Source: Candidatus Methanomethylicia archaeon (GTDB lineage: Archaea; Thermoproteota; Methanomethylicia; Nezhaarchaeales; B40-G2). From it: a DNA stretch of 24,617 nucleotides. Both the position numbers and the translations under genes were made by a program. The notes under the pieces are model-generated. The model made no database searches and was not told the DNA's origin. It was given only the letters and a program-made list of their open reading frames with translations. Shown piece after piece: positions 7,524 through 23,144 of the stretch. The first letter of the stretch is position 1, and every line of letters begins with the position of its first letter. Location of the stretch: NCBI GenBank assembly GCA_029259155.1, contig JAPDJI010000035.1:1-24617 (forward strand). Direction: 5' to 3'.

Positions 7524-8939
7524 TTAAAATGGGACGTTAGCTCTGCTTAGATATTCTCCGTACTCCACGAGCGCCTTAAGTGCTTCAACGGCCAGTTCAG
7601 GGGTGGGGAAGGTAGGGATACTTGCTTTCCTAAGGCTTTCCTTCTCTACGTCCCACACTCCATGGGGGTAGCGAAGGCACATCGTCACAGGTTTACCGGT
7701 CTCTCTATGAGAACTGATTATTGCTTCGATCGGTAGGAGCAGGAAGTCCTCTGACCATGAAAATATGTAGTTAACAACCACCGCATCAACGTTTGGATCA
7801 TCGAACACCAGTCTAATCGCCTCTCCACACTTCTCCGGGTCATTGGCTACGAAACCTAGGTCAACGGGGTTTGTCCTGATGGTGAATGGGGGTAATAGCT
7901 TCTTTATCTTACTTACAGTTTCTTCTGTGAACTCTGTCAGCTCTAGCCCTTTAGCTTCACAAGTATCAGCCGCTATTATGCCTAAACCAGCTACTAAGGA
8001 TATTACCGCAACTCTTCGGCCTTTGGCGGGAGGCTGATGTGCTAAGGCATCGGCTTTAGATATTAGTTCAAGGCTTCCGTCAGCTACGACTATGCCTGAC
8101 TGTTTAAAGGCAGCCTTATAAAGTTCATAGTTTCCGGCTAAGGAACCTGTATGGGACTTTGAGGCGGCATCGGCTTTTCTTGACCTTCCAGTTTTAAACG
8201 CGACGATAGGTTTAACCCTCGCAACCCTTCTAGCGGTCTCCATCAACTTCCTGGGCTCATCAATGCCCTCGACATAGAGGGCTATGCTCCTCGTGTCTTC
8301 ATCGTGAGCTAGGTATTCAAGCATATCTGCGAAGTCTACGTTTAGCCTATTACCTAACCCTACGATCTTGCTCATGCCTATGCCCTGCTCCAATATGTAG
8401 GGCATGAGGAGGTGGCATACACCTCCGCTTTGGCTCACTAGCGAAACTACACCTTTCTTTATCCTTGAGAAGGAGGGGGTAAAACCAGCGTTCAGGTCAG
8501 CGTGTAGGTTAACCATACCAAAGGTGTTAGGGCCTATGACCTTCACCTTGCTCTTCTCCGCAATCCTCCTTAACTCTTCTTGAAGCCTAGGGCCTTCTTC
8601 AAGCTCAGCTTCTCTAAGCCCAGCTGTTATTAAAACAGCTCCTTTGACCCCGGCTTCTCTACATTCTTCTAGAACTTCTAAGGCGACCTTAGCGGGCACG
8701 ACAATTATAGCTAGGTCTATCTCTCCTGGGACGTCTTTAAGCGATGAATATGCTTTGAGGCCGAAGATTGACGAGTATCCTGGGTTGATTGGATATATTG
8801 GTCCTTTAAAGCCCCCCTCTATCAAGCTCTTTAAGGCATGATACCCCATCTTCTTCGTGTTTTTAGAGGCACCGACGACTGCAACAGACCGAGGGTAAAA
8901 TAGGAAGGCCAACCTCCGCTTTCCATCTTCTAAACTCAA
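7524..8939 (-). CDS. acdA: Acyl/acetate-CoA ligase (ADP-forming) alpha subunit
   Basis: PRSVAVVGAS CoA-binding domain, IGPNTFG, SQSGG, phospho-His motif SHTGSLAG and NPVDL; no ATP-grasp beta domain (471 aa). Confidence 0.9.
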   Translation of the reverse strand: MSLEDGKRRLAFLFYPRSVAVVGASKNTKKMGYHALKSLIEGGFKGPIYPINPGYSSIFGLKAYSSLKDVPGEIDLAIIVVPAKVALEVLEECREAGVKGAVLITAGLREAELEEGPRLQEELRRIAEKSKVKVIGPNTFGMVNLHADLNAGFTPSFSRIKKGVVSLVSQSGGVCHLLMPYILEQGIGMSKIVGLGNRLNVDFADMLEYLAHDEDTRSIALYVEGIDEPRKLMETARRVARVKPIVAFKTGRSRKADAASKSHTGSLAGNYELYKAAFKQSGIVVADGSLELISKADALAHQPPAKGRRVAVISLVAGLGIIAADTCEAKGLELTEFTEETVSKIKKLLPPFTIRTNPVDLGFVANDPEKCGEAIRLVFDDPNVDAVVVNYIFSWSEDFLLLPIEAIISSHRETGKPVTMCLRYPHGVWDVEKESLRKASIPTFPTPELAVEALKALVEYGEYLSRANVPF

Positions 8940-9092
8940 GGCTTTCCCTAGTGATGTTGAAGAGTAGGAAGCTCTTTAAGCTTGTCAGCTTCTCGAACCT
9001 TCACATCATGCCTAGACGAGCTCTCGCAGAGATTCAACCTATCAGAGTTTAAAATCATATGTGTTAGAAGTTTAGAGAAGTGATCATGGCTC

Positions 9093-9162
9093 TGATGAAG
9101 GTCATGTAGCCTTCATCAAGCATCATCAACTAAGTGAACGACGTCTCTTAGTTGATGCTTGA
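9093..9162. repeat. Two adjacent/overlapping inverted repeats downstream of yqeB
   Basis: TGATGAAGG(9093-9101)/CCTTCATCA(9110-9118) forms 9 bp. CATCAACTAAG(9124-9134)/CTTAGTTGATG(9147-9157) forms 11 bp, extendable by TCAAG(9116-9120)/CTTGA(9158-9162). Confidence 0.75.
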
Positions 9163-9167
9163 GTACC

Positions 9168-10001
9168 TTAAGGTGATGCACGCTTATTTAGTAGCTTCGA
9201 ACGTAAATGAAGTATAGCCTCCAACACTCCTCCTCCCACAGCTCTAGCCCTGTCTGAGATCATGTAGCAGTACTCTCTCAACCCTGTCGGGTCGATTTCA
9301 ACTATTTTTTGTCCACGTCTAACTTTAATCCCCTCGTGTAACAGCCCTCTAATGACGCCTTTAATCATGCACCTTATGGGCTCCTCGCCTACTTTGGCTA
9401 TTAAGGAGCCTTCCTCCACATAGTCCCCTATTTCCTTAATAGGTCTAAACTCGCCGTCTGTAGGAGCTCTCAGTACTCTTTCATGCGTTAAGCCTTCAAT
9501 TTCCTCAGGAACACCTGTACTAGCCTCGGCCTCTCCCTCATAGATTACTCTTCCTAGGCTTATTCCTCTCCTAGTCTCGATGACTGCGTGAACATCTTTT
9601 TCGGCCTTAAACCCGGGGCCTAGGCCTATGACTATGGGGGCGTCGCTAATCATAGTACCTAGGTTCCTCCTAGCCATAATGGCGTCGACCACTACGTCGG
9701 GCTTAGCCCAGGATATGAAGCTCCATGCTTCATCAACTAGAACAGGTATTATTTTCAGCTTAAGAGCCTCTAGTGCCTCATGGTAGTCTTCAACCCTCCT
9801 AGCTTCTATGCCCTCAACCACGACTGACCTTGAGTATACGGCCTCCGCGAATGAAGCCAACCTGCGAAGCACAGTGGGTTGATGCTTTTCAAGGATCACC
9901 ACCTTTAGACCCGCCATGAATAGCCTGTGCGCTACACCCGTGCCTAAATCCCCTCCTCCTTTTACCACCACGAGCATTTCTGTAACTTCATCTAGCGCCA
10001 T
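9168..10001 (-). CDS. yqeB: Selenium-dependent molybdenum hydroxylase system protein YqeB (short, EF2563-type)
   Basis: VVKGGGDLGTGVAHRL, RR..SFAEAVY, VVVDAIMARRN, IGLGPGF, VIETRRG..LGRVI, ERVLRAP, lipoyl-like domain and ISDRARAVGGGVLEA. Likely start is ATG 10001, overlapping the mocA end (ORF track extends to 10028). Confidence 0.9.
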   Translation of the reverse strand: MALDEVTEMLVVVKGGGDLGTGVAHRLFMAGLKVVILEKHQPTVLRRLASFAEAVYSRSVVVEGIEARRVEDYHEALEALKLKIIPVLVDEAWSFISWAKPDVVVDAIMARRNLGTMISDAPIVIGLGPGFKAEKDVHAVIETRRGISLGRVIYEGEAEASTGVPEEIEGLTHERVLRAPTDGEFRPIKEIGDYVEEGSLIAKVGEEPIRCMIKGVIRGLLHEGIKVRRGQKIVEIDPTGLREYCYMISDRARAVGGGVLEAILHLRSKLLNKRASP

Positions 10002-10602
10002 GTCCAGCTCTCTCCACGTACCTAGCATAATCCTCGAAGGTGTCTATATCTATTAAAACTTCCTTGGAATGTACCTCAACTAACTTAACCTCGTTGCTGT
10101 GAGCCCTCACCACCTTCCTCAATCCCATGGTTTCCTCGTTTATCTCCTTTACCTCATCGAAGAGAGATCTGTCGATGAGGATGGGGTGTCCGCGTTTACC
10201 TTGAAAGGAAGCTATAAGTATTGGTCCGCCTGACACCTGATATTCCTTAATGAGGGCGTCTATGGGCCTTGAAGTCATTAAGGCGTAGTCGCCCGGCAGG
10301 ATAATCACCGCCTCAGCGGCATCATCTACTGCATGAAGCCCAGCTTTAATAGAAGAACTCATGCCTTCCTCGTAGCGCTCGTTGTATACAAGCTGAAGCT
10401 TACCTGTATCATCTAGTCCTCGAAGAACCTCCCTAACCCTGTCGGCCTCATGTCCAAGAACCACCACGACTTTATCGGCCATAGAATGCAACGCCTCCTT
10501 CGCGACCCTCCTTATCATAGCCTCTCCGTCCACTAAAGCCAATAGCTTATTCTTGGCAAACCTAGTTGATTTACCTGCAGCTAGCACTATTATCGCTATC
10601 AA
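9988..10602 (-). CDS. mocA: Molybdenum cofactor cytidylyltransferase (MocA/YgfJ-like NTP transferase)
   Basis: IVLAAGKSTRF..NKLL, GMSSSIKAGL, LPGD, GKRGHPIL and DIDT motifs; context of an MCD-requiring Xdh-family enzyme. Confidence 0.88.
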   Translation of the reverse strand: MIAIIVLAAGKSTRFAKNKLLALVDGEAMIRRVAKEALHSMADKVVVVLGHEADRVREVLRGLDDTGKLQLVYNERYEEGMSSSIKAGLHAVDDAAEAVIILPGDYALMTSRPIDALIKEYQVSGGPILIASFQGKRGHPILIDRSLFDEVKEINEETMGLRKVVRAHSNEVKLVEVHSKEVLIDIDTFEDYARYVERAGHGAR

Positions 10603-10634
10603 CGCTCCGTCATCGTTGAGAACTTAACTCAAGG

Positions 10635-10646
10635 TTTATATATTAA
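10635..10646. promoter_or_regulatory. Putative bidirectional TATA box between mocA and tfx
   Basis: TTTATATATTAA lies in a 62-nt divergent intergenic region and starts 30 nt before the tfx ATG (leaderless geometry). An adjacent TTGAG-N7-CTCAA inverted repeat is at 10616-10632. Confidence 0.55.
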
Positions 10647-10664
10647 GCTCTCCGGTCATTATCG

Positions 10665-11087
10665 ATGCCTAAACGCTACGGCTTCTTAACTGAACTTCAA
10701 CTAAAGGTTTTAACGCTTAAGTTGAAGAATGGGCTGACTCAAGAGGAGATAGCCAAGCTCTTAAACACGACGAGGGAGAACATAGCTATCATCGAGAGGA
10801 GGGCTAAGCGTAACGTGCAGTTAGCCATGGAGACCGTGATGTATTACAATAGGCTTAGGGCCATCGCTGAGGTCGAAGTTAAGCCTGGTACACACCTAGT
10901 CGAGATACCTAAGCTGATAATTGATGCTGGGGATAAGTTGAACGTGAAGTTGAAGGTCAATTTTACCAAGGTGTACGACGAGATAAAATTCAGGGCAAGG
11001 GGATGTGTCGAAGGGGTCAGGGTTGTTAAACCTTTTGTCATCGCTATTTATAGAGATGGTGAAATAGAGATCATGCCGAAGAAGTAA
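10665..11087 (+). CDS. tfx: Tfx-family DNA-binding transcriptional regulator
   Basis: FLTELQLKVL...GLTQEEIAKLLNTTRENIAIIERRAKRN (sigma-70 region 4-like HTH) followed by the Tfx C-terminal domain (V.PGTHL.EIP..I...GD...VKL). Confidence 0.88.
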   Translation: MPKRYGFLTELQLKVLTLKLKNGLTQEEIAKLLNTTRENIAIIERRAKRNVQLAMETVMYYNRLRAIAEVEVKPGTHLVEIPKLIIDAGDKLNVKLKVNFTKVYDEIKFRARGCVEGVRVVKPFVIAIYRDGEIEIMPKK

Positions 11088-11136
11088 ACATAGTTGTTTA
11101 ACAAAAATTTATAAATTTGTTATCGAACCTGTTTAC
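11084..11136 (+). promoter_or_regulatory. BRE-TATA promoter of the ABC operon flanked by TAAACA/TGTTTA repeats (candidate operator)
   Basis: TAAACA-N4-TGTTTA at 11085-11100, CAAAAA-TTTATAAA at 11102-11115, and a further TGTTTAC at 11130-11136. Confidence 0.6.
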
Positions 11137-11146
11137 GGAGCTACTG

Positions 11147-12094
11147 ATGAGAATTTCGCTCAATTATGTATTATTGATGTTAATTGCGTTAACAGTAGTT
11201 TTGATCCCATCAATCTTCACTATAACTCACTCTAGTGAAGAAGATAACCTACGCATGGCTGTGGAGTTTAACGATCATTCAGCAGCTGCTTGGGTGGCTA
11301 TTGATAAGGGAATATTCGAGGAGCTTGGGCTGAATGTCACCTACCTCGAAACGTTTAGGACAGGACTTGAGCTCAGCGCTGCTATGATGAGGGACGACGT
11401 CGACGTTGCATGGGCCTGCTTGGGCCCTGTAATCATGGCTTACAGCAACGGTTTACCCATAAAGGTGGTTGCGGGCACACACCTACAGGGGTATGCCATC
11501 GTTGCGAGGAGCGAGTTTGAGGAGCCTAGCCAATTAGATGGCGGTGTTCTTGCATGTCCTGGTAAAGGTAGCCCCTGCTACCTATTATTGAAGTTATTCG
11601 TCGAGAGACATGGATTAAACTACACCTTAATGTATCTTAGGCCTGACCTCGCAGTCAATGCTCTGATCACAGGTCAGATCGATGCTGCCGCACTACCTGA
11701 ACACTACGTAACCTTAGCTGTAAGAAGGGGGGAGTGCAGGGTGCTAGCTCAAAGTCAGGATCTATGGCCTAACATGCCTGGGAGCGTCTTAGTTGTAAGA
11801 GAAGACCTTATCGAGGAGAAACCAGAGCTAGTATCAAAGTTAGTTCAAGCTACAATTAAGGCCACATGCCTCATAGAAGATGATTTTGAGGGTTCAGCTA
11901 GCGTCGTAGCTTCCCGCTTAGGGTTAACGTTAGATGAAGCCTTAGAGTCCATGAGCCACCTTGAATACGACGTGAAGGTTGATCTAGCTGAGTATCAGAA
12001 ATACATAGATTTAATGGCTCAGTATGGATGCATACCTCAAAGCTTCAACGCCTCTAACCTCGTCGACCTGAGCTTTCTAGGTGAATCAAGTTGA
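11147..12094 (+). CDS. ABC transporter substrate-binding protein, NitT/TauT/SsuA-like
   Basis: N-terminal hydrophobic anchor; VAIDKGIFEELGLNV, DVDVAW, GQIDAAALPE and VLVVREDLIEEKPELV motifs. ATG 11147 (GGAG upstream) is preferred over TTG 11117, which lies right next to the TATA box. Confidence 0.88.
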   Translation: MRISLNYVLLMLIALTVVLIPSIFTITHSSEEDNLRMAVEFNDHSAAAWVAIDKGIFEELGLNVTYLETFRTGLELSAAMMRDDVDVAWACLGPVIMAYSNGLPIKVVAGTHLQGYAIVARSEFEEPSQLDGGVLACPGKGSPCYLLLKLFVERHGLNYTLMYLRPDLAVNALITGQIDAAALPEHYVTLAVRRGECRVLAQSQDLWPNMPGSVLVVREDLIEEKPELVSKLVQATIKATCLIEDDFEGSASVVASRLGLTLDEALESMSHLEYDVKVDLAEYQKYIDLMAQYGCIPQSFNASNLVDLSFLGESS

Positions 12095-12837
12095 GAGTTA
12101 AGGCTCTAATAGTTCTCTTTGCGGCTTTAACCATGTGGGAGATGGCTATAAGATTCGGTTTTCTCTCCGGCTTCCTCTTCCCATCGATGGTTGACGTGGC
12201 CTATTCTCTCAATAAGTTAATCGTCTCAGGGATCCTAGTAAACCATTACCTGGCTTCGCTAATAAGGGTCCTTGTTGGCTTCACCCTAGGGTCAATCGCT
12301 GGGGTAGCTGTAGGAGTAGCGATGGGATATAGTAGAGTGGTCTACGACTCCACTTTCCTTATACTGACTCTCCTCTATTCCATCCCTGCGGTTGCCTGGA
12401 TACCTTTACTCATAGTTTGGATAGGGCTTAGGGAGCTTTTACCCATAGCCGTGGTCTTCCTATGCTCCTTCGTCCCACTCGTCTTCATCACCCTCACAGG
12501 TGTTAGGGGAGTGGACAGGAACGTGATCAACGTGGCTAAGACTTTGGGGGCTTGTAGGTGGAAGCTAGTGACATCTATCATAATTCCTCAAGCCTTGCCC
12601 TCAATACTATCCGGGTTAAAGGTGGAGATTGGGATGGCTTGGAGGTCGTGCTTCGTGGCTGAGATGGTGGCTATGTCTTCAGGCTTAGGCTTCCTGGCCA
12701 TGGAGGCCAGCAGCATGTTGAGAGTCGATGTAATAATAGTGACGGTCACGGTCTTAGCTGCCTCGAATTACCTTTTCCAAGAGCTCTTTGAGAGGCTTGA
12801 GCTTATGATCACTAAAAGGAGAGGGGATGTTGCCTAA
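12091..12837 (+). CDS. ABC transporter permease, TauC/SsuC-like
   Basis: FPS...ASLIRVLVGF, IPAVAWIPL, EAA-like loop NVAKTLGA, IIPQALPSILSGL and AEMVAMSSGLG; TTGA overlap with the upstream gene. Confidence 0.9.
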   Translation: MRVKALIVLFAALTMWEMAIRFGFLSGFLFPSMVDVAYSLNKLIVSGILVNHYLASLIRVLVGFTLGSIAGVAVGVAMGYSRVVYDSTFLILTLLYSIPAVAWIPLLIVWIGLRELLPIAVVFLCSFVPLVFITLTGVRGVDRNVINVAKTLGACRWKLVTSIIIPQALPSILSGLKVEIGMAWRSCFVAEMVAMSSGLGFLAMEASSMLRVDVIIVTVTVLAASNYLFQELFERLELMITKRRGDVA

Positions 12838-13843
12838 CGTAGAGCTCGTGGAAGTGTGGAACTATGCGCTTAAAGGATTGAACTTTAAAGCTGAACACGG
12901 CTGCTTTACCTTCCTCCTTGGCCCTTCAGGTGCTGGCAAGACCACAGCCTTAAATGTCATGGCAGGCTTGGTTGACTATGAAGGCTCCGTGCTCTTTGAC
13001 GGTAGCCCCGTCGATAAAATTCCTCCTGACAAGAGATGTGTTGGCCTAGTTCCTCAAAACTTAGCACTTTTCTCCCACATGACTGTGGAGGATAACATAG
13101 CTTATGGCTTAAAGCTGAGAAAGCTGCCTAAGAGCGTGGTTAAGGAAAAGGTATTGGAGCTCGCTAAGCTCCTCGACCTTAAACACCTGCTCCACCGTTA
13201 TCCAGGTGCTCTAAGCGGTGGTGAGAGGCAGCGAGTAGCTATTGCTAGGGCTCTAGCCATTAACCCGAGGGTCCTGCTCCTCGATGAACCCTTTAACAAC
13301 CTCGACGCGGCGTCAAGAGAAGTGTTAAAGCTATGGCTAGTCAGCCTACAGAAGGCTCTTAAATTAACGACGATCCTCGTCACCCATGAGGTGAGCGAGC
13401 TTAAGGGGTTGAAAGGAAAAGCAGTAGTGTTGGTTAACGGTAAAGCCGTCGAGGAGGGTCCTCTAGAAAACATCGCGTCTTCACCTCTAGGCCAGAACCT
13501 CATAGGTTTAAACCTATTCAAGTGCGAGGTTTATGAAGCGCTGGGTAACGGTCTAATGAAGGCATCATGCGGTGGGCTTAACGTCGTTCATGAAGGAGGC
13601 CAAGCAAACTTTCTATATATTCCTCCAACAGAGGTGAAGGTCTCAAAGGACCCATTTAAGGGGTTAAACGCGTATCGCGGTGTTATCGTGGGTGTCGAGA
13701 GCCTAGGCTCGGCAATCAAGTTAAAAGTGGCTGTTGGCGACCATATCTTAAGCTCAATTCAAGCTAACTCCTCTGAGGCTCCTAGTCTTGGAGAGGAGGT
13801 ATATGTGAGACTACCTATGAAGTCGGTGAGGGCGTTACGTTGA
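12827..13843 (+). CDS. ABC transporter ATP-binding protein with C-terminal TOBE/OB-like extension
   Basis: GPSGAGKT, VPQ..ALF.HMTV.DNIAYG, LSGGERQR, LLLDEPF and VTHE motifs; about 110-aa beta-rich C-terminal extension. Confidence 0.92.
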   Translation: MLPNVELVEVWNYALKGLNFKAEHGCFTFLLGPSGAGKTTALNVMAGLVDYEGSVLFDGSPVDKIPPDKRCVGLVPQNLALFSHMTVEDNIAYGLKLRKLPKSVVKEKVLELAKLLDLKHLLHRYPGALSGGERQRVAIARALAINPRVLLLDEPFNNLDAASREVLKLWLVSLQKALKLTTILVTHEVSELKGLKGKAVVLVNGKAVEEGPLENIASSPLGQNLIGLNLFKCEVYEALGNGLMKASCGGLNVVHEGGQANFLYIPPTEVKVSKDPFKGLNAYRGVIVGVESLGSAIKLKVAVGDHILSSIQANSSEAPSLGEEVYVRLPMKSVRALR

Positions 13844-14586
13844 ACTGGCTTGACAGGTTGGCTGTAGAAGCCTTCGTTGAGAGGCTTAAGTTACATAGAT
13901 TGGAAGGCTTAGAGGCCAGGTTCATGGTGTTGGGGAAGGATGAAGTGAAGCTTCCTTCCAGCGAGTACTTCCTGATGAGGGGGAGGGAGGTAATAGAGCA
14001 CTGTGAGATCGAGGGGGGCTGTGGACAGGCTTTCACAAGCCATGCGAGAAACTGCGTCTTACCGTTCAGCGAAGTTCCGTTCTTAGACCTATCTTTAGAG
14101 GTTAACAGAGCTTTATTCTACTCAGCGCTCAACGCCTTACTGAACAGGCTGGGGGAGGTTAAAGGTACTCTTCACTGTAAGGGTGTAGAGGCTGAGGCTT
14201 GCGGTGACCTATTAGCTGCGGAGATACGTAAGAGGCTGAGGAAAGATGATGTTGTGCTACATATAGGTTATCAACCTGGCCACGTTAGGGCTTTAGCCAA
14301 GGCTTTTGACAGGCTACTCGTAACAGACATGGATCCCGCTAATATAGGCTCCGTTAAGTTCGGAGTTAAGGTGCTCAGTAGCTCAGAGAACGAGGAAGCT
14401 ATAAGGAGAGCTAGGCTGGTCCTGGTGACGGGTAGTGCAGTGGTGAATGGGACGCTCCACGAAATCATTAACTGGTGCGACCGCTATGCGGCAGAGTGTA
14501 TAATTTATGGCGTTACGGGTAAAGGAGTCGCCAAGCTCCTAAACCTGCCCATTTTCTGTCCATATGCTCGTGATCAAGGTGGGTAG
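13840..14586 (+). CDS. DUF364-like (Rossmann-like, putative metal-chelation) protein
   Basis: GQAFT, RALF.S.LNALL, IGYQPG, VTGSAVVNGT and YGVT motifs; several Cys/His pairs (HC...C, FCPY). Confidence 0.72.
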   Translation: MNWLDRLAVEAFVERLKLHRLEGLEARFMVLGKDEVKLPSSEYFLMRGREVIEHCEIEGGCGQAFTSHARNCVLPFSEVPFLDLSLEVNRALFYSALNALLNRLGEVKGTLHCKGVEAEACGDLLAAEIRKRLRKDDVVLHIGYQPGHVRALAKAFDRLLVTDMDPANIGSVKFGVKVLSSSENEEAIRRARLVLVTGSAVVNGTLHEIINWCDRYAAECIIYGVTGKGVAKLLNLPIFCPYARDQGG

Positions 14587-14588
14587 AG

Positions 14589-15104
14589 TTGGAAATGGAA
14601 ATAGTTCTCAAACCTATAGGTTTCATTAGGACTGGGCTAAGCGATGAAGAGGTAAAGGGAAGCTGGCCTGGCGGTGTAGAGGCTGAGATAGAGGTCTTAG
14701 AGGAGTTTAAGGATGCCTTAGAGGGTATCGATGGTTTTTCTCACCTCATCGTTATCTTTTACATGCATAAGGTCACGGAAGAGCAGCGCAGAGTACTCAA
14801 AGCAAGACATAAAAGGTTTATTCAGCGCTATGGCTTCAAGCTTGAGGAACTACCCTTAGTTGGGGTTTTCTGTCTAGACTCGCCTCATAGACCTAATCCC
14901 ATAGGCTTAACGATCGTTGAGCTCATTGAAAGGCGAGGTAGAGTGTTGAAGGTTAAAGGCATGGACGCCTTCGATGGCACCCCAGTCTTAGACATTAAAC
15001 CGTACACACCGAGCAGATGCAAGGTTGACCTAAGGTTTCCGACATGGTACACCAGGTTAATGGAGGAGCTCAAACGTAGAGGTGTAGAGACCGATGAATT
15101 TTAA
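14589..15104 (+). CDS. TrmO/TsaA (YaeB/AF0241, UPF0066)-family SAM-binding beta-barrel protein, single-domain
   Basis: LKPIGFI, F.DALEGIDGFSHLIVIFYMH, GVF...SPHRPNPIGLTIVEL and D.FDGTPVLDIKPY motifs; start TTG 14589 or ATG 14595. Confidence 0.88.
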   Translation: MEMEIVLKPIGFIRTGLSDEEVKGSWPGGVEAEIEVLEEFKDALEGIDGFSHLIVIFYMHKVTEEQRRVLKARHKRFIQRYGFKLEELPLVGVFCLDSPHRPNPIGLTIVELIERRGRVLKVKGMDAFDGTPVLDIKPYTPSRCKVDLRFPTWYTRLMEELKRRGVETDEF

Positions 15105-16326
15105 GCAGCTTAAAGGATCTCTTAGGGTTAAACTTCTTGACTATGTAGAGCTCGAGGAGGTCTATGAAAGGCTGAAGCTTAACGTTAAGCCTTTAGGAGA
15201 GGTAGAGGAGGTAGATGTTCTCGAGGCTTGCGGTAGATACTTAGCCGAGGATGTAGCTGCTCCTTTCGACTCTCCTCTCTTTGACACGGCTCACTTCGAC
15301 GGCTTTGCAGTAAGAAGCTCAGATACTCGAGGCGCCTCGCTTAGTGCACCTGTATTCTTGAAGCTTACTGGTGACGGTAGGTTGGGGGTGGGTGAGGCCT
15401 GCTATGTGCCAACAGGTAGACCTCTTCCAGAGGGCTCAGACGCTTTGATTGAGCTAGAGAAGGTTGAGGTGCTTGAAGACACCGTGGTCATCCGCAGCGA
15501 GGTGAAACCTTGGTTAAACGTTACGAGAAGGGCTTCAGACTTTAAGAAACAGGAGGTGGTGTTTTGTAGTGGTAGAAGGCTTAGGCCGCTGGATGTTAAG
15601 GCTCTTCATGTCTTCGGTCTGAGAAAAATTAAGGTTCATAGGAAGCCCACTATCCTTATCGTTCCCACGGGGACTGAGCTCGTTGAGGATCGTAGGGAAG
15701 ATACCCATAGTCCGCTTGTAAAGCAGGTTTTACTTAAAGCTGGCTTTAAGGCCTTAATTGCTCGTCCCGTTAGGGATGACGTGAACGAGATCGCCGCCAC
15801 GGTGATTAAAGGCCTCGAACGATGCGACGCTGTATTTACGGTCGGTGGGGCTTCAGTGGGGCTTTACGACCATGTGTGGGAGGCGGCCATGAGCATTGGA
15901 GGTAAGCCCTTGGTTAGAGGAATTAAGATGGTTCCTGGCAGGGTGACAAGCTGCGTGGCTGTCGATGGAAAGCCCCTCGTCCTCCTTCCAGGCCATGTTC
16001 AGTCTCTGATCGTCGGCTTGTCCTTCATAGGTATACCAGCGGTGGGCGTGAGTATGATGGGTGTTCCATTAGAACCTAAGCCTACTGGTAAAGTCAAGCT
16101 GACCAGGAGCCTTAGCTTTGGAAGATTCAAGGACTTCAAGAAGGTAATCTTCGTTAAACTGGCTTGGGGAAACGATGTACTCGCTGAGCCGTTAGAGGGG
16201 GATAGTTCTAAGCTAAGCCCCTTAGTGAGAGGAGACGGCTTCACGGTGGTGGAGAAGGGCGTGGAAGCACTGGACACTGGCTCCCTTATTGACCTGTACC
16301 GACCTTACGAGCTCTATGGAGGCTAA
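15094..16326 (+). CDS. moeA: Molybdopterin molybdotransferase MoeA-family protein (divergent)
   Basis: GRYLAEDV.AP.DSP.FD.AHFDGFAV, TG.PLPEG.DA, TG.EL, GG.SVG..D and LPG motifs; 410 aa. Confidence 0.88.
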   Translation: MNFKQLKGSLRVKLLDYVELEEVYERLKLNVKPLGEVEEVDVLEACGRYLAEDVAAPFDSPLFDTAHFDGFAVRSSDTRGASLSAPVFLKLTGDGRLGVGEACYVPTGRPLPEGSDALIELEKVEVLEDTVVIRSEVKPWLNVTRRASDFKKQEVVFCSGRRLRPLDVKALHVFGLRKIKVHRKPTILIVPTGTELVEDRREDTHSPLVKQVLLKAGFKALIARPVRDDVNEIAATVIKGLERCDAVFTVGGASVGLYDHVWEAAMSIGGKPLVRGIKMVPGRVTSCVAVDGKPLVLLPGHVQSLIVGLSFIGIPAVGVSMMGVPLEPKPTGKVKLTRSLSFGRFKDFKKVIFVKLAWGNDVLAEPLEGDSSKLSPLVRGDGFTVVEKGVEALDTGSLIDLYRPYELYGG

Positions 16327-17117
16327 GGTTTAAGTAAACTTAAATGAGGTAGCTTAGCTCCTTTTCGAAGCCCTATTATCTCAGCCATGATGCTTAAAGC
16401 TACCTCCTCAGGCGTATCAGCCCCTAGATCTATGCCTACCGGTGCATAAAGTCTACCCCTAAGATGCTCTAAGTTGAAGCCCTCGCTGCCTAGACGTTCA
16501 AGTAGGAGCTTTGTCTTTCTCTTGCTACCCAATAACCCGATGTAGCTTGGCTCTTGTTTAAGCGCAACCCTTAAAGCTTCATAGTCTCTTTCAGGGTCTC
16601 CGTAAGCTATCACTATGTAATCCGACCTCCCTACCTTAACCTCCCTTAAAGCTTCACTTGGTGGTTTAGCTAGGACGCCAGGCTCTTCAGCAGCCTCGTC
16701 CACTAATATTGCCTCAAACCTTAGCTCCCTGGCGAGCCTAGCTAGCGCTATGCCTACATGACCTACGCCCATGATTACGAGCCTAGGCTTAGGAGTTAAG
16801 ACGTCGATGAAGACTTCAGCTGCACCTCCACATGGAAGTCCAGTGTCTACGCCTTCACCGAAACCAAAGCTATACCTAACGAGCTTGCTAGCCCCTTTCT
16901 TCAACGCCTCTAAGGCCTCCTCCTTAACTAGCTCCTCGAACTTTCCTCCCCCTATTGTCCCCTCCACCTCGCCGTCTTCGGTCACGAGCATCTTAGCTCC
17001 TTCGTCTCTAGGGGCGGAGCCCTCCTTCTTAACCACGATACAGAGAGCCACCTTTTTGCCGCTTGATAAGGCCTCTAAGGCCCTCGATAGTATACGCTCA
17101 ACCATCACCACCACCAT
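16323..17117 (-). CDS. xdhC: XdhC/CoxI-family Moco maturation/insertion factor
   Basis: GSAPRDEGAKM, GTIGGG, GLPCGG, GVGHVG, YIGLLGSKRK and YAPVGIDLGADTPEEVALSIMAEI motifs; alternative start ATG 17105 after GGTGGTGGTG. Confidence 0.93.
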   Translation of the reverse strand: MVVVMVERILSRALEALSSGKKVALCIVVKKEGSAPRDEGAKMLVTEDGEVEGTIGGGKFEELVKEEALEALKKGASKLVRYSFGFGEGVDTGLPCGGAAEVFIDVLTPKPRLVIMGVGHVGIALARLARELRFEAILVDEAAEEPGVLAKPPSEALREVKVGRSDYIVIAYGDPERDYEALRVALKQEPSYIGLLGSKRKTKLLLERLGSEGFNLEHLRGRLYAPVGIDLGADTPEEVALSIMAEIIGLRKGAKLPHLSLLKP

Positions 17118-17166
17118 ATTAATTGAACAGCAACCTACTCAACCGTGGCTCCTACAAGCTAATAAG

Positions 17167-17198
17167 ATTATATATTTTTCAATAGAAAGTTTTTTAAT
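17167..17198. promoter_or_regulatory. Back-to-back BRE-TATA promoters for xdhC (-) and the Mo-hydroxylase operon (+)
   Basis: Minus strand GAAAAA-TATATAAT (17180 to 17167); plus strand GAAAG-TTTTTTAAT (17185-17198). Confidence 0.55.
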
Positions 17199-17233
17199 TG
17201 ATATTGTAGCAAGGCTTGGTTGGATTGATTAGA

Positions 17234-18127
17234 ATGGTGCTTAAACTTCCTCCTTTTGAGTATTTTGAGCCTCATAGCTTGGAGCAAGCCTGCGACCTCC
17301 TATCCAAGTACCGCGGTAAAGCTGCTCTATTAGCTGGAGGCACTAACCTTCTTGTCCAGATGAAGCTTGGTAGGAGGAGGCCTCAAGCTGTCATTAACTT
17401 AAAGCGCATACCTAAGCTTAGCTACGTGGCCCATAGCGATGAGGGTTTGAGGATAGGGGCTTTAACCACGATACGTGAGATCTTGAGGTCCACGGTGGTA
17501 AAGGAGCACTTTACCGCTCTTTGGGAGGCTGCCCAAGTTATGGCCTTCCCCAATATTAGAAACATAGCCACTATAGGCGGAAATATATGCAACGCTGCAC
17601 CTACGGCGGATCTTCCTCCTCCTTTAATGGCGTTAGGCGCACGTGTAGTAGCTAGGAGTAGTCGCGGATTAAGGTCTATAGCTCTCGCGGACTTCTTCCA
17701 AGGACCTAATAAGACCTCCTTGAGCGAGGATGAAGTTCTCGTAGAGGTTTTCATCCCCAACCCTCCTCGAAATACCTCCTCGACCTACCTTAAGCTACCG
17801 TCTAGAACCTTGGAGGACATCTCGGTTGCCGGCGTGGCGGTTTCGCTTAGCTTGAACGGCCAGGAGGTCAAGAGCTTGAGGCTTGCTTTAGGAGCTGTGG
17901 CGCCTGTACCTATCTTGGTTAGAGAGGCTGAGGAGATTGCGAAGGGGAGGAGGGTTGATCAACAGCTTATAGATGAAGTGGCTGAGGAAGCTTCAAGGAA
18001 AGTAAATCCTCCTAAAAGCGAGTTATGGGATTTTCGCGCCCCTGCGGAGTATCGCAGGGAGGTGGTCAAGGTATTGACGAAGAGAGCTTTAAGAAAAGTA
18101 TTGGGGTCCTTGGGGTGGTCTGGGTGA
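17234..18127 (+). CDS. Xanthine dehydrogenase/CoxM-family FAD-binding subunit
   Basis: FEYFEP, LAGGTNL, IGALTT, IRNIATIGGNICNAAP.AD and DFRAPAEYR motifs; no [4Fe-4S] insert; likely start ATG 17234. Confidence 0.93.
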   Translation: MVLKLPPFEYFEPHSLEQACDLLSKYRGKAALLAGGTNLLVQMKLGRRRPQAVINLKRIPKLSYVAHSDEGLRIGALTTIREILRSTVVKEHFTALWEAAQVMAFPNIRNIATIGGNICNAAPTADLPPPLMALGARVVARSSRGLRSIALADFFQGPNKTSLSEDEVLVEVFIPNPPRNTSSTYLKLPSRTLEDISVAGVAVSLSLNGQEVKSLRLALGAVAPVPILVREAEEIAKGRRVDQQLIDEVAEEASRKVNPPKSELWDFRAPAEYRREVVKVLTKRALRKVLGSLGWSG

Positions 18128-18594
18128 AGAAGGCCATTAAGCTGAAGGTAAATGGTGAAGTTAAGGAGTTAGAGGTGGAGCCTTGGAAGACTCTCCTCGA
18201 GGTTTTACGGGAGGATCTAGGCTTGACCAGCGTTAAGGAGGGCTGCGGGACAGGTGATTGTGGGTCATGCACGGTTATACTTAACGGTAAGGCGGTGAAC
18301 TCCTGCCTAGTCCTAGCTGTGGATGCTGATGGAGGCGAAGTCTTAACTGTTGAAGGGCTATCTGACGGCTCTAAGCTTCATCCTCTACAAGAGGCTTTCA
18401 TTAAGTATGGCGCTATTCAGTGCGGCTTCTGTACGTCAGGCATGATAATGGCGGCTAAAGCTCTACTCGACGAAAACCCTAACCCTACTCCTGAAGAAAT
18501 CAAGGAGGCTTTGAGCGGCAATATCTGTCGCTGTGCAGGTTACTCAAACATAGTTAAGGCTATCTTAGCAGTGGCTAAAGGTGAGATCAAATGA
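18124..18594 (+). CDS. Xanthine dehydrogenase/CoxS-family 2x[2Fe-2S] subunit
   Basis: GCGTGDCGSCTV...NSC and QCGFC...NICRC motifs; likely GTG start at 18124 in a GTGA overlap (the ORF track's extra 33 N-terminal residues overlap the upstream gene). Confidence 0.95.
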   Translation: MKKAIKLKVNGEVKELEVEPWKTLLEVLREDLGLTSVKEGCGTGDCGSCTVILNGKAVNSCLVLAVDADGGEVLTVEGLSDGSKLHPLQEAFIKYGAIQCGFCTSGMIMAAKALLDENPNPTPEEIKEALSGNICRCAGYSNIVKAILAVAKGEIK

Positions 18595-20975
18595 GCAACT
18601 ATAGCTTTGTGGGTAAGCCTACTCCACGGTTGGATGGAGCAGAGAAAGCCACTGGTAGAGCAGTATATGTTTCAGACTTAGAGCTGCCCGGTATGCTATA
18701 CGCCAAGATACTACGTAGCCCTCTACCCCATGCAAGGATTGTAAGCATAGATGTAAGCGAAGCGCAGGCTCTTCCAGGAGTGAAAGCCGTTATAACTGGT
18801 AGGGATACTTTAGGGGTAAGGTATGGCTTCGTTGACACGCCTAGCCTCCCAGCCGACGAGCCTCCATTGGCTGAAGACAAAGTAAGGTATGTTGGTGAAC
18901 CTATTGCCGCAGTGGCGGCGGTTAGCGAGGAAATAGCTGAGAGAGCGTTGAGGTTAATCAAGGTCAAGTATGAGGAGCTTCCTGCGGTATTTGACGCTGA
19001 GGAAGCCATGAAGGAGGGCGCTCCCAAGATACATGAAGTGATCAAGCCCACGGCTCCCTCTTTCTGGCAAGAATGGGGGGTTGCACGCCCTTCGAAGGAA
19101 CAGGTTGTAGTTAATAATGTAGCTTCAACCTGTTTCGTCTCCTATGGCGATGTGGATAAGGGGTTCAAGGAAGCTTACTTGGTCAGGGAGGACGTGTTTA
19201 AGACTAGTCCTCACTCACATTGCTGTATGGAAACCCATGACGTTGTGGCGAGCTATAACCCCACAACGGGCTTCTTGGATGTATGGACCGGCCACATGGG
19301 CTTTCCGATTAAACAGTATTGGCTGGCTAGGACGCTGGGCCTACCAGTTAGCAAGGTGAGGATACGTAGGATCCACATAGGAGGGGTCTTTGGCGGAAAG
19401 ATAGAGCTTCAGCCCCACGAGTTCATAGCTGCTTTCCTATCTAAGAAGCTAGGCAAGCCCGTTAAGATAGTCCTAACTAGGGAAGAGGACTTAGAGTCCT
19501 CTAGGTCTTCACAGCATTTAGCTAAGATATATTTGAAGACAGGGGTGACGAAAGACGGCCTCCTGGTAGCTCAACACGCTAAAGTGATAGGTGACTGCGG
19601 TGCTTACCGCGGCTCAGCACCTGTTTTCATCTTCCTAGCTCACGCCTTCTCTCAGCCCATCTACCACATTCCTAACTATAAGTATGAGGCTTACGCCGTA
19701 TATACCAATAAGCAGGTAAGGGTGCCAAAAAGAGGCCATGGAGCTCCTGAGTTCCGGTTTGCCATGGAGTCTCAGCTTGACATGTTAGCTGAAGAGCTAG
19801 GTATGGATCCTGCGGAGATAAGGCTTAAGAATTTCAGGAAGAAAGGTGACGTGTTACCTAACGGCGATATACTTCATAGCTGTGGGTTAACAGAAGGACT
19901 TCAAAAGCTCGTGGATCGTATAAAGTGGACCGAGAAGAGGCGTAAAGGAAAGGAGGGCGAGAAGGCTTACGGAGTAGGTTTAGGAGTAGCCGCTATGTTT
20001 AATGGCGCCCAGTACTATCCTTTTGGGAGTACCGCGGTAGTTAGGCTAAACGAAGATGGTAAAGCGGTGGTCTTCACAGGTGCTGCTGAGTTCGGACAGG
20101 GCTCCGACACCTTAATGGCGCAGATAACCGCTGAGACCCTAGGCTTACGCCTAAACGACGTTATAGTGATCTCCGGCGACTCTGTGCTCTGTCCCATTGA
20201 CATGCACAACTGGCTAAGCGGGGGCACCTTTGTCTCAGGAAGGGCAGTGAAGCTGGCTGCTGAGGATGCTAAACGACAGCTCCTCGAGGTTGCAGCCGAG
20301 ATGCTGGAGGCCAGCCCCGAGGACCTTGAAGTGAAGGAGGGCTGGGTTCGTGTTAAAGGCCAACCTGAACGTGGCATTACTGTATCTCAGGCGGTTAGAA
20401 GGCATATCTTGACTAGAGGGGGTAAACAGATCGTTGGGGTCGGGCATACTAAAGCAATACCCGACGACCCAAGCGTTAACTGGTATCCTAGTCTCCATAC
20501 CGCTCGTGGCCGCTTCACAGGAGCCTATAGCTTTACCGTGGCTGGCGCAGAAGTAGAAGTGGACATAGCGACAGGCAAGGTGAGAGTTTTAAAGGTCACC
20601 GTAGCCCACGACTGTGGTTTTCCCATCAATCCTCAGATGGTAGAGGCCCAGGTAGAAGGTCAAGTAGCCATGGGGATAGGTCAAGCGCTGTTTGAAGAGC
20701 TCGCTACTTCAAGACATGGCAGGGTGCTTAATCGCACCCTCGCGGACTACAAGGTCGCTAGGTTTACCGACATGCCTGAAGTGGAAACCGTTCACGTAAT
20801 CACCGTCGACCCGAACGGCCCCTTCGGTGGCAAGGAGGTTGGTGAGGGTGTACTAGGGGCTCTCCCAGCGGCGATAGCTAATGCTGTTGCTAACGCCATA
20901 GGGGCATGGATCAAGGAGATACCTATGAGGCCTTATACAGTGCTGAAGGCTATTAAGGAGCGTTCACGTAGCTAG
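18591..20975 (+). CDS. Xanthine dehydrogenase-family molybdopterin-binding large subunit (4-hydroxybenzoyl-CoA reductase alpha-like motifs)
   Basis: DG.EKATG.A.Y..D, RSP.PHARI, DKVRYVGEP, GGVFGGK, RGHG, EFGQG, GQVAMGIGQAL.E and GPFGGKEVGE motifs; ATGA overlap with the Fe-S subunit. Confidence 0.93.
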   Translation: MSNYSFVGKPTPRLDGAEKATGRAVYVSDLELPGMLYAKILRSPLPHARIVSIDVSEAQALPGVKAVITGRDTLGVRYGFVDTPSLPADEPPLAEDKVRYVGEPIAAVAAVSEEIAERALRLIKVKYEELPAVFDAEEAMKEGAPKIHEVIKPTAPSFWQEWGVARPSKEQVVVNNVASTCFVSYGDVDKGFKEAYLVREDVFKTSPHSHCCMETHDVVASYNPTTGFLDVWTGHMGFPIKQYWLARTLGLPVSKVRIRRIHIGGVFGGKIELQPHEFIAAFLSKKLGKPVKIVLTREEDLESSRSSQHLAKIYLKTGVTKDGLLVAQHAKVIGDCGAYRGSAPVFIFLAHAFSQPIYHIPNYKYEAYAVYTNKQVRVPKRGHGAPEFRFAMESQLDMLAEELGMDPAEIRLKNFRKKGDVLPNGDILHSCGLTEGLQKLVDRIKWTEKRRKGKEGEKAYGVGLGVAAMFNGAQYYPFGSTAVVRLNEDGKAVVFTGAAEFGQGSDTLMAQITAETLGLRLNDVIVISGDSVLCPIDMHNWLSGGTFVSGRAVKLAAEDAKRQLLEVAAEMLEASPEDLEVKEGWVRVKGQPERGITVSQAVRRHILTRGGKQIVGVGHTKAIPDDPSVNWYPSLHTARGRFTGAYSFTVAGAEVEVDIATGKVRVLKVTVAHDCGFPINPQMVEAQVEGQVAMGIGQALFEELATSRHGRVLNRTLADYKVARFTDMPEVETVHVITVDPNGPFGGKEVGEGVLGALPAAIANAVANAIGAWIKEIPMRPYTVLKAIKERSRS

Positions 20976-22723: not shown

Positions 22724-23144
22724 GGTTGGTCCTCTAGGCATTGCGTCTTGTGCTTAATTAATATTATAGCCATCTCGGGCGCCTTAATCTTCGAGGGCTC
22801 TCTGGCTACTTGATATAGGGTTGATAACGTTTTAGCAGCTTCCCGATTGAAACAGTTGTTATGAAAAAATATTAGATCAGGGCTTGAAGCCAAGCATAGT
22901 ATCTGCCTGAACCTCCTCGAGTAGGTATGAGGCAGGGCTAAGTCTCTTAGAAGCTTCACCTAGCTTGTAGGCTGCTCATAACCACGGCGACATTGAGATA
23001 AGGGAGCGATGGCCTTTACGTTGCCTCCTAAAACGTAACCCTGTGTTTAAGAGCGCTTCGCTTTCCTTTATAGCCCTTAATATTCTTATAATTTTCACAA
23101 CATTAAAATACTGGTTTTATCAACAATGAAGGGGTGGTTGTTGG

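Follow-up and report, generated by a model that had tools for sequence, protein, structure and literature searches.

Directly behind a tfx gene, the 24,617-nt contig JAPDJI010000035.1 of a Candidatus Methanomethylicia archaeon (assembly GCA_029259155.1; this whole stretch is the window in what follows) carries a run of six genes, at 11147–16326, for the three proteins of an ATP-binding cassette (ABC) importer, a DUF364 protein, a TrmO-like protein and a MoeA protein. The initial annotation had read the run as one candidate system that imports and remodels a molybdenum cofactor (Moco) or pterin precursor or a metal oxyanion. This raises two questions: whether the six genes form one functional unit, and what the importer carries. 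Our analysis demonstrates that the run is a composite and not a single six-gene system. Four of its genes form a conserved module, and judging from gene content, conservation, genomic contexts and fusions this module is probably a dedicated line of molybdenum import and handling, standing beside the tungstate-type transporter WtpABC.

A conserved four-gene core within a composite island

Genome contigs were scanned with a DUF364 alignment, which yielded 68 loci; metagenomes were scanned with a binding-protein alignment, and from 449 relatives the best 80 were taken. Thirty-six of these metagenome loci contained the complete transporter with 900 nt or more on either side and were classed as informative. 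The conserved core consists of four genes, all on the + strand of the window. They encode a membrane-anchored NMT1/TauA-type substrate-binding protein (11147..12094, open reading frame (ORF) from 11117; NMT1_2, 89 bits), a NitT/TauT-type ABC permease (12091..12837; BPD_transp_1, 85.7 bits), an ABC ATPase with a C-terminal TOBE domain (12827..13843; ABC_tran, 112 bits; TOBE_2, 22.5 bits, cut-off 21) and a DUF364 protein of a subfamily that we term His-Cys3 after its invariant residues (13840..14586; PF04016, 47 bits, cut-off 23, residues 129–226). The binding-protein gene adjoins the DUF364 gene in 12 of the 68 genome loci (L028–L031, L036, L041, L044, L046, L049, L055, L073 and L089), and 11 of the 12 also hold permease and ATPase genes; in L036 the contig stops at the binding-protein gene. 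The carriers belong to Bathyarchaeia/Hecatellales, Desulfurococcales, Nezhaarchaeales, Methanomethylicota, Ca. Terraquivivens and ANME-2/Methanogaster, and include an actinobacterium and a planctomycete. Among the informative metagenome loci, a His-Cys3 DUF364 gene is directly adjacent in 26 of 36, and in most of the loci checked its start either overlaps the ATPase stop or abuts it. In the planctomycete (L089:8173-9918), permease and ATPase read as one 581-aa ORF.

The six-gene run itself was confirmed in the ORF lists, and two of its junctions also in the sequence itself: successive genes overlap by 4, 11 and 4 nt, are separated by 2 nt and overlap again by 11 nt. The gene names given to it earlier agree with the Pfam and NCBIfam assignments. 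The same gene order was found in three other metagenome assemblies (runs X2, X3 and X4), whose single contigs cover 8500–16342 (X2), 8500–21500 (X3) and 11620–21500 (X4); the arrangement is therefore neither an assembly artefact nor a chimera. The predicted starts at 12091, 13840 and 14589 are TTG codons. For the binding-protein gene, the in-frame ATG at 11147, the start chosen in the initial annotation, is likelier than the TTG at 11117, because the latter falls within an A+T-rich inverted repeat around a TATA-like box.

That unrelated genes were simply packed side by side by chance in a compact genome seems scarcely credible to us. The genome is small and dense, short overlaps are common in it, and the TrmO-like gene demonstrates that tight spacing alone is no proof of a common function; however, several phyla share the four-gene order together with its molybdenum contexts, and both are missing from 14 control loci. 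The association of ABC importer and DUF364, together with Tfx and a specialised MoeA, for which a co-occurrence analysis had been suggested, thus recurs and is tied to molybdenum metabolism.

The module is part of a molybdenum-hydroxylase island, whose roughly 11.5 kb fall into two blocks, 9168–14586 and 15094–20975, with the TrmO-like gene (14589..15104, + strand; TIGR00104, 110 bits, cut-off 93.25; TrmO_N, 102 bits) between them. The first block, YqeB-MocA-Tfx-transporter-DUF364, is bounded by a CoA ligase gene and the TrmO-like gene; the second, comprising MoeA, XdhC and the subunits of a xanthine dehydrogenase (XDH)-family hydroxylase, is bounded by the TrmO-like gene and a deaminase gene. 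The source genome (1.55 Mb, 94% complete) was compared with 41 relatives, among which TrmO-like orthologues occur in 30 and DUF364 in 13. Three genomes of the same family (G001–G003) yielded no match to DUF364, to the binding-protein subfamily or to XDH large subunits. There the order is NikR-like, enoyl-CoA hydratase, adenine deaminase and TrmO-like genes, followed by a CoA ligase or thiolase gene; the TrmO-like proteins are colinear with ours at 64–73% identity, and the gene stop abuts the deaminase stop. Because these sister genomes, which lack the module, keep the gene between the same flanks, the TrmO-like gene is a resident bystander enclosed by the island and lies outside the conserved module. 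In the 68 genome loci it never adjoins the module; three of them contain a TrmO-like match, always 1.6–9 kb away. No match was found in the 80 metagenome loci. The SAM (S-adenosylmethionine)-dependent processing step that had been assigned to its product must accordingly be dropped from the module. No meaningful repeats flank the two island blocks, whose presence here would reflect either an insertion or a double loss in the sister genomes.

The TrmO-like protein consists of the N-terminal domain alone (Pfam), and the genome contains two more TrmO_N-like matches, at C5:15050-15490 (39% identity, in-frame TAG) and C42:2042-2347 (45%). A tandem hexamer lies at the start of the TrmO-like gene (14589–14602). 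The X2, X3 and X4 strains have one copy of it, with 6 nt missing at 14590; the start still lies 2 nt past the DUF364 stop, and the first residues of the protein differ among the strains.

Molybdenum enzymes around the module

Genes for Tfx, MoeA, MocA, XdhC, YqeB or XDH subunits accompany the module in 7 of the 68 genome loci and 23 of the 80 metagenome loci. In the Bathyarchaeia locus L044, a compact island runs from the [2Fe-2S], molybdopterin-binding large and FAD subunits through Tfx, binding protein, permease, ATPase and DUF364 to MocA, MoeA and XdhC, and so contains all components of the window save YqeB and TrmO. YqeB homologues occur near the module in L061, L124, L149, L183, L192 and L194, and MocA lies beside it in L044, L124, L128, L129, L149, L183 and L198. 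A second kind of context is nitrogenase. In the ANME-2/Methanogaster locus L049, nifH (462.6 bits, cut-off 394), two P-II genes and nifD stand upstream of the transporter and DUF364 genes. NifD or NifK is encoded directly upstream of the binding-protein gene in this locus and in 11 of the 80 metagenome loci, and those nif-linked loci that were scanned with Pfam as examples have nifH, P-II, radical SAM, GlnA, Amt or homocitrate synthase genes nearby. A ModD-like QRPTase gene was found in 8 of the 80 metagenome loci, and a ModE-domain regulator, FmdE, MOSC, MogA/MoaB, a MoeA-PBP fusion, TorD and a helix-turn-helix regulator with a PBP_like domain in one locus each. With the three sets of neighbours counted once, 38 of the 80 metagenome loci have a molybdenum-related neighbour; many of the others are short contigs. 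As a control, 14 loci of other NMT1 binding proteins (24–34% identical) from related genomes were inspected, and none of them had DUF364 or any of the neighbour genes named above within about 8 kb.

Two side observations concern these neighbourhoods. In L061, L073, L180, L189, L194 and L198, a gene beside the module encodes a protein of some 340 aa that ends in a MoCF_biosynth domain but has no MoeA_N match. Distant DUF364 genes (L060, L072, L077, L081, L085 and L087) belong to a recurrent cluster in bacteria and Bathyarchaeia with genes for NifX-like (Nitro_FeMo-Co), Mrp/ParA-ferredoxin, radical SAM, MOSC, FeS_assembly_P and 4HBT thioesterase proteins.

The need common to nitrogenase, the XDH family, Fmd and dimethyl sulfoxide reductase (DMSOR)-family chaperones is molybdenum, and neither a pterin nor one organic substrate. 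The genomic contexts favour metal-oxyanion uptake among the options that the initial annotation had offered. Nitrogenase uses no pterin, and a transporter that sits within nif operons is hard to explain as an importer of pterin or a Moco precursor; in addition, the genome encodes MoaA, MoaC and MoaE, and conservation of the module does not extend to the TrmO-like gene. Import of such a precursor followed by remodelling through DUF364, a TrmO-like SAM step and MoeA is therefore highly improbable, even though the fold relative PqqT of the binding protein binds a cofactor and a derivative of flavin or pterin has been suggested for DUF364 (Miller et al. 2010; PMC2954201). Of the proposal as a whole, the module and its link to molybdenum stood up, and the TrmO-like step and pterin import did not. 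The only moaC found (C2:106817-107238) is split across two frames, covering profile positions 1–57 and 56–136, which suggests a frameshift or an assembly error.

It is very unlikely that the importer takes up an organic substrate of the hydroxylase, such as a purine, N-heterocycle or aromatic acid. Uptake systems often stand beside catabolic enzymes, an adenine deaminase gene adjoins the hydroxylase genes here, and NMT1-family binding proteins are reported to take pyrimidine-like ligands (PMC10443332). Yet transporters of this subfamily, their invariant residues unchanged, occur in nif operons and in MoeA, MogA or FmdE loci without a hydroxylase; the adenine deaminase gene is kept in the sister genomes that lack the island, and elsewhere DUF364 pairs with ModABC.

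Tungstate instead of molybdate is also distinctly unlikely as the imported metal. WtpC is the best NCBIfam match of the ATPase, the carriers come from hydrothermal and sediment settings and include a genome of the Wolframiiraptoraceae lineage (L030), and the source genome encodes at least five members of the aldehyde:ferredoxin oxidoreductase (AOR) family. Against tungstate, the contexts are those of molybdenum-only enzymes: to our knowledge, the XDH family, nitrogenase and the enzymes of the FmdE-type operon are known with molybdenum alone. Furthermore, the same genomes already have tungstate transporters of the WtpA or TupA type. The source genome encodes WtpABC (WtpA, 403 bits, cut-off 355), and TupA was not found in it; in the Bathyarchaeia genome of L044, the sole SBP_bac_11 match belongs to a TupA-like transporter of the tungstate type. 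The source genome has five full and two partial AOR genes, five DMSOR-family matches above cut-off and a single PF02738 match, the XDH-family large subunit of the island. In one DMSOR-family match (C22:1184-2438), which has a short N-terminal piece, an in-frame TGA immediately precedes the main match; the TGA could be a selenocysteine site or a break.

Proteins of the module and of the island

The Pfam matches of the binding protein are NMT1_2, NMT1 and Phosphonate-bd only, and no ModA, WtpA or TupA model is among its NCBIfam matches. It scores 122.9 bits with SsuA_fam (cut-off 163.5) and 63.7 bits with SaoX (cut-off 300). Its AlphaFold2 (AF2) model (mean predicted local distance difference test score, pLDDT, 93.1) has an N-terminal anchor helix at residues 5–26 and a fold of the TauA/SsuA/ThiY/NrtA/CmpA/PqqT type, with 3un6, TauA and SsuA as the best matches (template-modelling score, TM, 0.77–0.79). 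These solved relatives are distant by sequence (TauA, 31.6 bits; 21–23% identity to TauA and SsuA). In an alignment of 58 sequences that includes nif-linked ones, E40, H44, H112, Y116, E185 and W207 are invariant and C91 is conserved in at least 90%. In the AF2 model the invariant residues are placed at strand ends and helix starts, and they would line the ligand cleft, as is usual at such positions in this class. The two invariant carboxylates are reminiscent of the octahedral molybdenum/tungsten site of archaeal WtpA/ModA.

The permease likewise stays below every NCBIfam cut-off, with SaoP at 140 bits (295), SsuC at 122.5 (347) and TauC at 119.7 (342), and among the molybdenum and tungsten models modB at 25.2 (182.6) and WtpB at 17.2 (340). 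The ATPase matches WtpC best (229.9 bits, cut-off 440) and SaoA with 147.2 bits (cut-off 360). Membership in the SAO system (SaoX/SaoP/SaoA) was considered and rejected, all three scores being far under cut-off. The ATPases of the nif loci, ANME-2 and L030 have 229–267 aa, too short for an extension of TOBE length; long forms occur elsewhere. A search of the ESM Atlas gave no usable match.

The DUF364 protein is predicted by AF2 (pLDDT 96.7) to have a two-domain fold, an enolase-N-like domain and a Rossmann-like domain. Its best fold matches, 3npg and 3l5o, have TM scores of 0.51–0.57 over 200–253 columns and a Foldseek probability of 1.00. The family assignment was settled by this fold search because the profile sequence search of the PDB was weak (3npg with E = 0.016, 3l5o missed). 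Profile-profile comparison with canonical DUF364 gave 96% probability, and the segment with H112, C113 and C121 is without a counterpart there. The DUF4213 domain (PF13938) that forms the N-terminal domain of the canonical protein L124:3753-4589 (77.8 bits) has no Pfam match in the window protein. What sets the subfamily apart is a His-Cys-x7-Cys...Cys motif (H112, C113, C121 and C240), which all 39 transporter-linked sequences share. Among 1100 representative matches, the best 150 keep H112 in 148 cases, C113 and C121 in 150 each and C240 in 132, the remainder at the last position being gaps. At E <= 1e-30 the matches amount to at least 236 representative clusters.

DUF364 also occurs in fusions: to an ABC ATPase (623 aa; 4 members, 17 contigs; named molybdate transport ATP-binding protein in one source), to FmdE (5 members) and to NifU_N (two clusters), and all fusions retain His-Cys3. 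It follows canonical ModA-type transporters in L053, L054, L068 and L074, and other distant DUF364 genes lie beside NifX-like, Mrp/ParA, radical SAM and MOSC genes. In Methanococcus maripaludis, DUF364 is described as following a canonical ModA-type transporter in an operon with nifH cofitness (bioRxiv 10.1101/2024.03.05.583561), and STRING links of DUF364 to molybdenum, tungsten and vanadium transporters were noted in 2010 (PMC2954201, section 3.3). The His-Cys3 site, the links to NifU_N, FmdE and MOSC and the Rossmann residues of adenosyl type suggest that DUF364 carries out metal-sulfur chemistry in which a nucleotide or SAM takes part. In L143, L180, L182, L183 and L061, the His-Cys3 form is accompanied by a canonical DUF364 that contains DUF4213, and in L124 and L149 the canonical form replaces it, between YqeB and MocA; the two types may have different jobs.

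An alternative is that the importer carries a sulfur or selenium compound, such as a sulfonate or thiosulfate, from which DUF364 supplies the sulfido or selenido ligand and cluster sulfur. TauA and SsuA are the closest solved folds and sequences of the binding protein, a nitrogenase-like enzyme locus with a sulfonate transporter has been published (PMC11423573), the island YqeB carries the NCBIfam name 'selenium-dependent', and the His-Cys3 DUF364 itself, the NifU_N fusion and the MOSC, NifX-like and Mrp/ParA neighbours in some loci would fit. We nevertheless consider this unlikely. The nif loci are true ones, given the nifH score cited above, nifI-type P-II genes, homocitrate synthase and three consecutive genes of nitrogenase component-1 type (read as nifK/E/N); the ModD-like, ModE-domain, PBP_like-regulator, FmdE and MoeA/MogA neighbours indicate a metal; DUF364 also follows canonical ModAB, and the name given to the fused ATPase in one source is that of molybdate transport. 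The SsuA_fam, TauA and SsuC/TauC scores are all under cut-off. As for selenium, the 94% complete genome contains no YqeC match and no SelD above cut-off (best match 90 bits, cut-off 125; HypE, ThiL and one AIR-synthase-family protein, unassigned, account for the three candidates). At this completeness the result falls short of proving that the genes are absent; it also speaks against the seleno-metalate named as a possible ligand in the initial annotation. The AIR-synthase-family protein (C5:74066-75103; L024:1246-2283, - strand) scores 145 bits with the HypE model (cut-off 251) and is 42% identical to L044:1548-2558, encoded directly upstream of the Bathyarchaeia XDH genes; it may be a further maturation factor.

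Upstream of the transporter stands the gene for the Tfx-family DNA-binding protein (10665..11087, + strand; TIGR00721, 101.6 bits, cut-off 60.25), with a TATA-like box at 10635–10644. The protein combines TFX_C (67.2 bits) with an N-terminal helix-turn-helix, Sigma70_r4 (28.7 bits). Its gene adjoins the binding-protein gene in L029, L031 and L044. Of the 80 metagenome loci, 16 contain a Tfx match, which in most cases neighbours the gene for the binding protein; a part of these 16 duplicates genome loci. Tfx has been described as a molybdenum/tungsten-responsive regulator of fmdECB (PMC3087415), and here it is likely to be a molybdenum-responsive regulator of the operon. A candidate promoter/operator at 11099..11122, a 7-nt inverted repeat around a TATA-like box 5' of the binding-protein gene, is a weak lead to a Tfx operator. 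L044, L128 and L134 have similar repeats (..TTACA, 12 nt, TGTAA..) in front of their binding-protein genes. In a shuffle test only the L044 repeat exceeded shuffled sequences (2/200), and the best repeats of the window (9-nt, 31/200), L031 (40/200) and L134 (70/200) were no better than shuffles. A sigma-70 promoter scan was set aside as inapplicable to an archaeal genome.

The island MoeA (15094..16326, + strand) has MoeA_N (118.6 bits), MoCF_biosynth (78.3) and MoeA_C (26.1) matches, all above cut-off, and scores 235.4 bits with PRK14498 (cut-off 534) and 134.5 with PRK10680 (cut-off 440). Two other moeA genes, in tandem on contig C19, reach 420 and 467 bits on PRK14498, also under its cut-off. 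In a 15-row tree the island MoeA falls within a supported clade (97/93) of eight, whose members come from loci with Tfx and this binding protein; the C19 pair lies outside. The idea of a specialised MoeA is thus upheld by a clade tied to Tfx and this transporter.

The remaining genes of the island are those of a hydroxylase and its maturation. The mocA gene (9988..10602, - strand) lies upstream of tfx and divergent from it, and its product is a MocA-like Moco nucleotidyltransferase (NTP_transf_3, 119 bits; TIGR03310, 159.3 bits, under the cut-off of 186.45). Next to it is the gene for a YqeB-family protein (9168..10028, - strand; TIGR03309, 345 bits, cut-off 220; zero Pfam matches), which belongs to the molybdenum-hydroxylase maturation set of the island. 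Downstream of the MoeA gene and convergent with it is the gene for an XdhC-family Moco insertion/maturation chaperone (16323..17117, - strand; XdhC_C, 112.9 bits; XdhC_CoxI, 82.2 bits). The XDH-family hydroxylase is encoded on the + strand by genes for the FAD-binding subunit (17216..18127; FAD_binding_5, 183.5 bits; CO_deh_flav_C, 80.4 bits), the [2Fe-2S] subunit (ORF 18025..18594; Fer2_2, 117.3 bits; Fer2, 34.5 bits) and the molybdopterin-binding large subunit (18591..20975; MoCoBD_1, MoCoBD_2 and Ald_Xan_dh_C matches). The domains of the [2Fe-2S] subunit start only at residue 36–41 of its ORF, and the true start is probably near 18124. An adenine deaminase gene follows (20972-22741, - strand), and the profile scan assigned further flanking genes to a thiolase, an ADP-forming CoA ligase, an enoyl-CoA hydratase and a NikR_C protein.

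Proposed function and comparison with known systems

For the ligand, the hand-over and the regulation of the molybdenum line, we infer the following scheme. The module would bring molybdenum into the cell, either as molybdate or, where the habitat is sulfidic, in thiolated form, and DUF364, located at or on the ATPase, would receive or process the metal in the cytoplasm. The island MoeA would then put molybdenum into molybdopterin, MocA would add CMP, and XdhC, with YqeB, would mature the cytosine-dinucleotide cofactor and deliver it to the sole XDH-family hydroxylase; Tfx would switch the operon according to metal supply. WtpABC and the two standard MoeA proteins would serve the tungsten-dependent (AOR-family) and DMSOR-family enzymes. 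A possible rationale is that the line keeps up the supply to molybdenum-only enzymes where the housekeeping system of the cell is tuned to tungstate.

Several observations weigh against this assignment. An adjacent His-Cys3 DUF364 is missing in 10 of the 36 informative metagenome loci, and two genomes (G014 and G023) carry binding protein and DUF364 on separate contigs. Related uncultured lineages contribute many of the loci, and genome loci are in part duplicated among the metagenome loci (L140 equals L029; L129 is close to L044, and L158 to L031); the counts are therefore not independent events. Among the 41 relatives, strong binding-protein matches occur in five, XDH large subunits in 12 and both in two; three of the five binding-protein genomes have no XDH match, two of these three being 72–75% complete. 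The invariant Glu, His and Cys residues would also suit a metal cation or a metal chelate. The nearest solved relatives of the binding protein bind taurine, sulfonates, thiamine precursors, nitrate, bicarbonate or pyrroloquinoline quinone (PQQ), and no solved NMT1-type protein is known to bind molybdate (PMC10443332). The one DUF364 enzyme reported as characterised cyclises SAM in secondary metabolism (PMC12930334). Finally, all six module-bearing genomes tested also carry a binding protein of the SBP_bac_11 type. A role as the sole importer of molybdenum or tungsten was rejected on this ground, and the module is therefore an addition and no replacement.

We put forward a more specific version only tentatively, as a minor possibility. 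Here the NMT1-type transporter would be a fourth class of molybdenum importer, selecting molybdenum over tungsten or taking thiomolybdate in sulfidic, tungsten-rich habitats, and DUF364 would be a metal-sulfur enzyme on the ATPase that converts imported molybdate into a sulfur-ligated donor, NifQ-like, for both FeMo-co and Moco.

If the assignment of the module to molybdenum is true, nif and Moco loci of ANME-2, Bathyarchaeia and related uncultured lineages would need a corrected annotation. In a 2018 survey, 13 archaea and 278 bacteria were found to use molybdenum without a known transporter, and further systems were considered possible (PMC6147048). The module is a concrete and widely distributed candidate for such a missing importer, for which databases give only the name NitT/TauT family transporter. 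DUF364 gains a testable role through its conserved His-Cys3 site and its fusions to ABC ATPase, FmdE and NifU_N, and the findings bear on how molybdenum-only enzymes (nitrogenase, XDH family) receive the right metal in tungsten-dependent anaerobes. The suggestion that the system is undescribed holds in part. The link of DUF364 to molybdenum/tungsten transporters (PMC2954201; bioRxiv 10.1101/2024.03.05.583561) and the position of Tfx at a molybdenum-enzyme operon (PMC3087415) are already in print. In full-text searches of the literature, excluding the supplementary tables of PMC6147048 and of the M. maripaludis preprint, and in the source names of 61 homologues, we did not find an NMT1/TauA-type molybdenum importer, the His-Cys3 DUF364 subfamily with its fusions or the Tfx-transporter-DUF364-MoeA island.

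Among known systems, the solved DUF364 proteins Dhaf4260 (3L5O) and PH1506 (3NPG) share the two-domain fold of the window protein at an identity of only 14–17%. The adenosyl-binding Rossmann residues discussed by Miller et al. (PMC2954201) have, by our own mapping, counterparts in G143, D163, T197 and N203. Unlike canonical DUF364, the window protein lacks the DUF4213 domain and has the extra invariant His-Cys-x7-Cys...Cys. M. maripaludis MMP_RS02675, encoded in a modABC operon, has the link to a molybdenum transporter in common with it (bioRxiv 10.1101/2024.03.05.583561). Orf5 of the bonnevillamide cluster belongs to the same Pfam family, and an adenosyl ligand such as SAM may be common to both; as described, however, Orf5 cyclises 4''-methyl-SAM in Streptomyces, whereas the His-Cys3 subfamily occurs in a transport and metal context (PMC12930334).

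Regulation and maturation also have precedents. In Methanothermobacter, tfx (MTH916) lies directly beside the molybdenum-enzyme operon fmdECB (PMC3087415), as tfx lies beside a molybdenum operon here, and the DUF364 homologue is linked to the molybdenum/tungsten transport genes MTH924 and MTH926 (PMC2954201). The difference is that here Tfx heads an operon for a transporter together with an XDH-family enzyme, in lineages not of the methanogen type, and its regulation is putative. YqeB, MocA, XdhC and an XDH-family enzyme occur together in the island, and SelD and YqeC were not found in the genome. The genes for YqeB, YqeC and SelD co-occur elsewhere as the maturation trait of selenium-dependent molybdenum hydroxylases. 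NifQ is the molybdenum donor for FeMo-co synthesis and acts between molybdate uptake and cofactor assembly; the likeness to DUF364 is a functional analogy only (both cysteine-rich and cytoplasmic), and DUF364 occurs in Moco contexts as well.

With regard to transport, NitT/TauT-family ATPases, as far as is known, usually have no TOBE domain. SsuABC, TauABC and NrtABCD share with the module the Pfam families of binding protein and permease and the best folds; in contrast to them, the module misses all curated cut-offs, and thus belongs to the superfamily and to no known equivalog, has a TOBE-containing ATPase and stands in a molybdenum context that is missing at 14 ordinary NMT1-type loci. ModABC, WtpABC and TupABC are the three classes of molybdenum/tungsten ABC importers given in PMC6147048. 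The module resembles them as an ABC importer beside molybdenum-enzyme, Moco and nif genes, and DUF364 follows both kinds of transporter. Its ATPase may be of the ModC/WtpC/CysA type, with WtpC as the best match under cut-off and TOBE_2 slightly above its own, whereas the nif-linked relatives have short ATPases of 229–265 aa. It differs from them in a binding protein of the NMT1_2 family instead of SBP_bac_11 or PBP_like_2, in a permease nearest to SsuC, TauC and SaoP, and in a ligand that is predicted.

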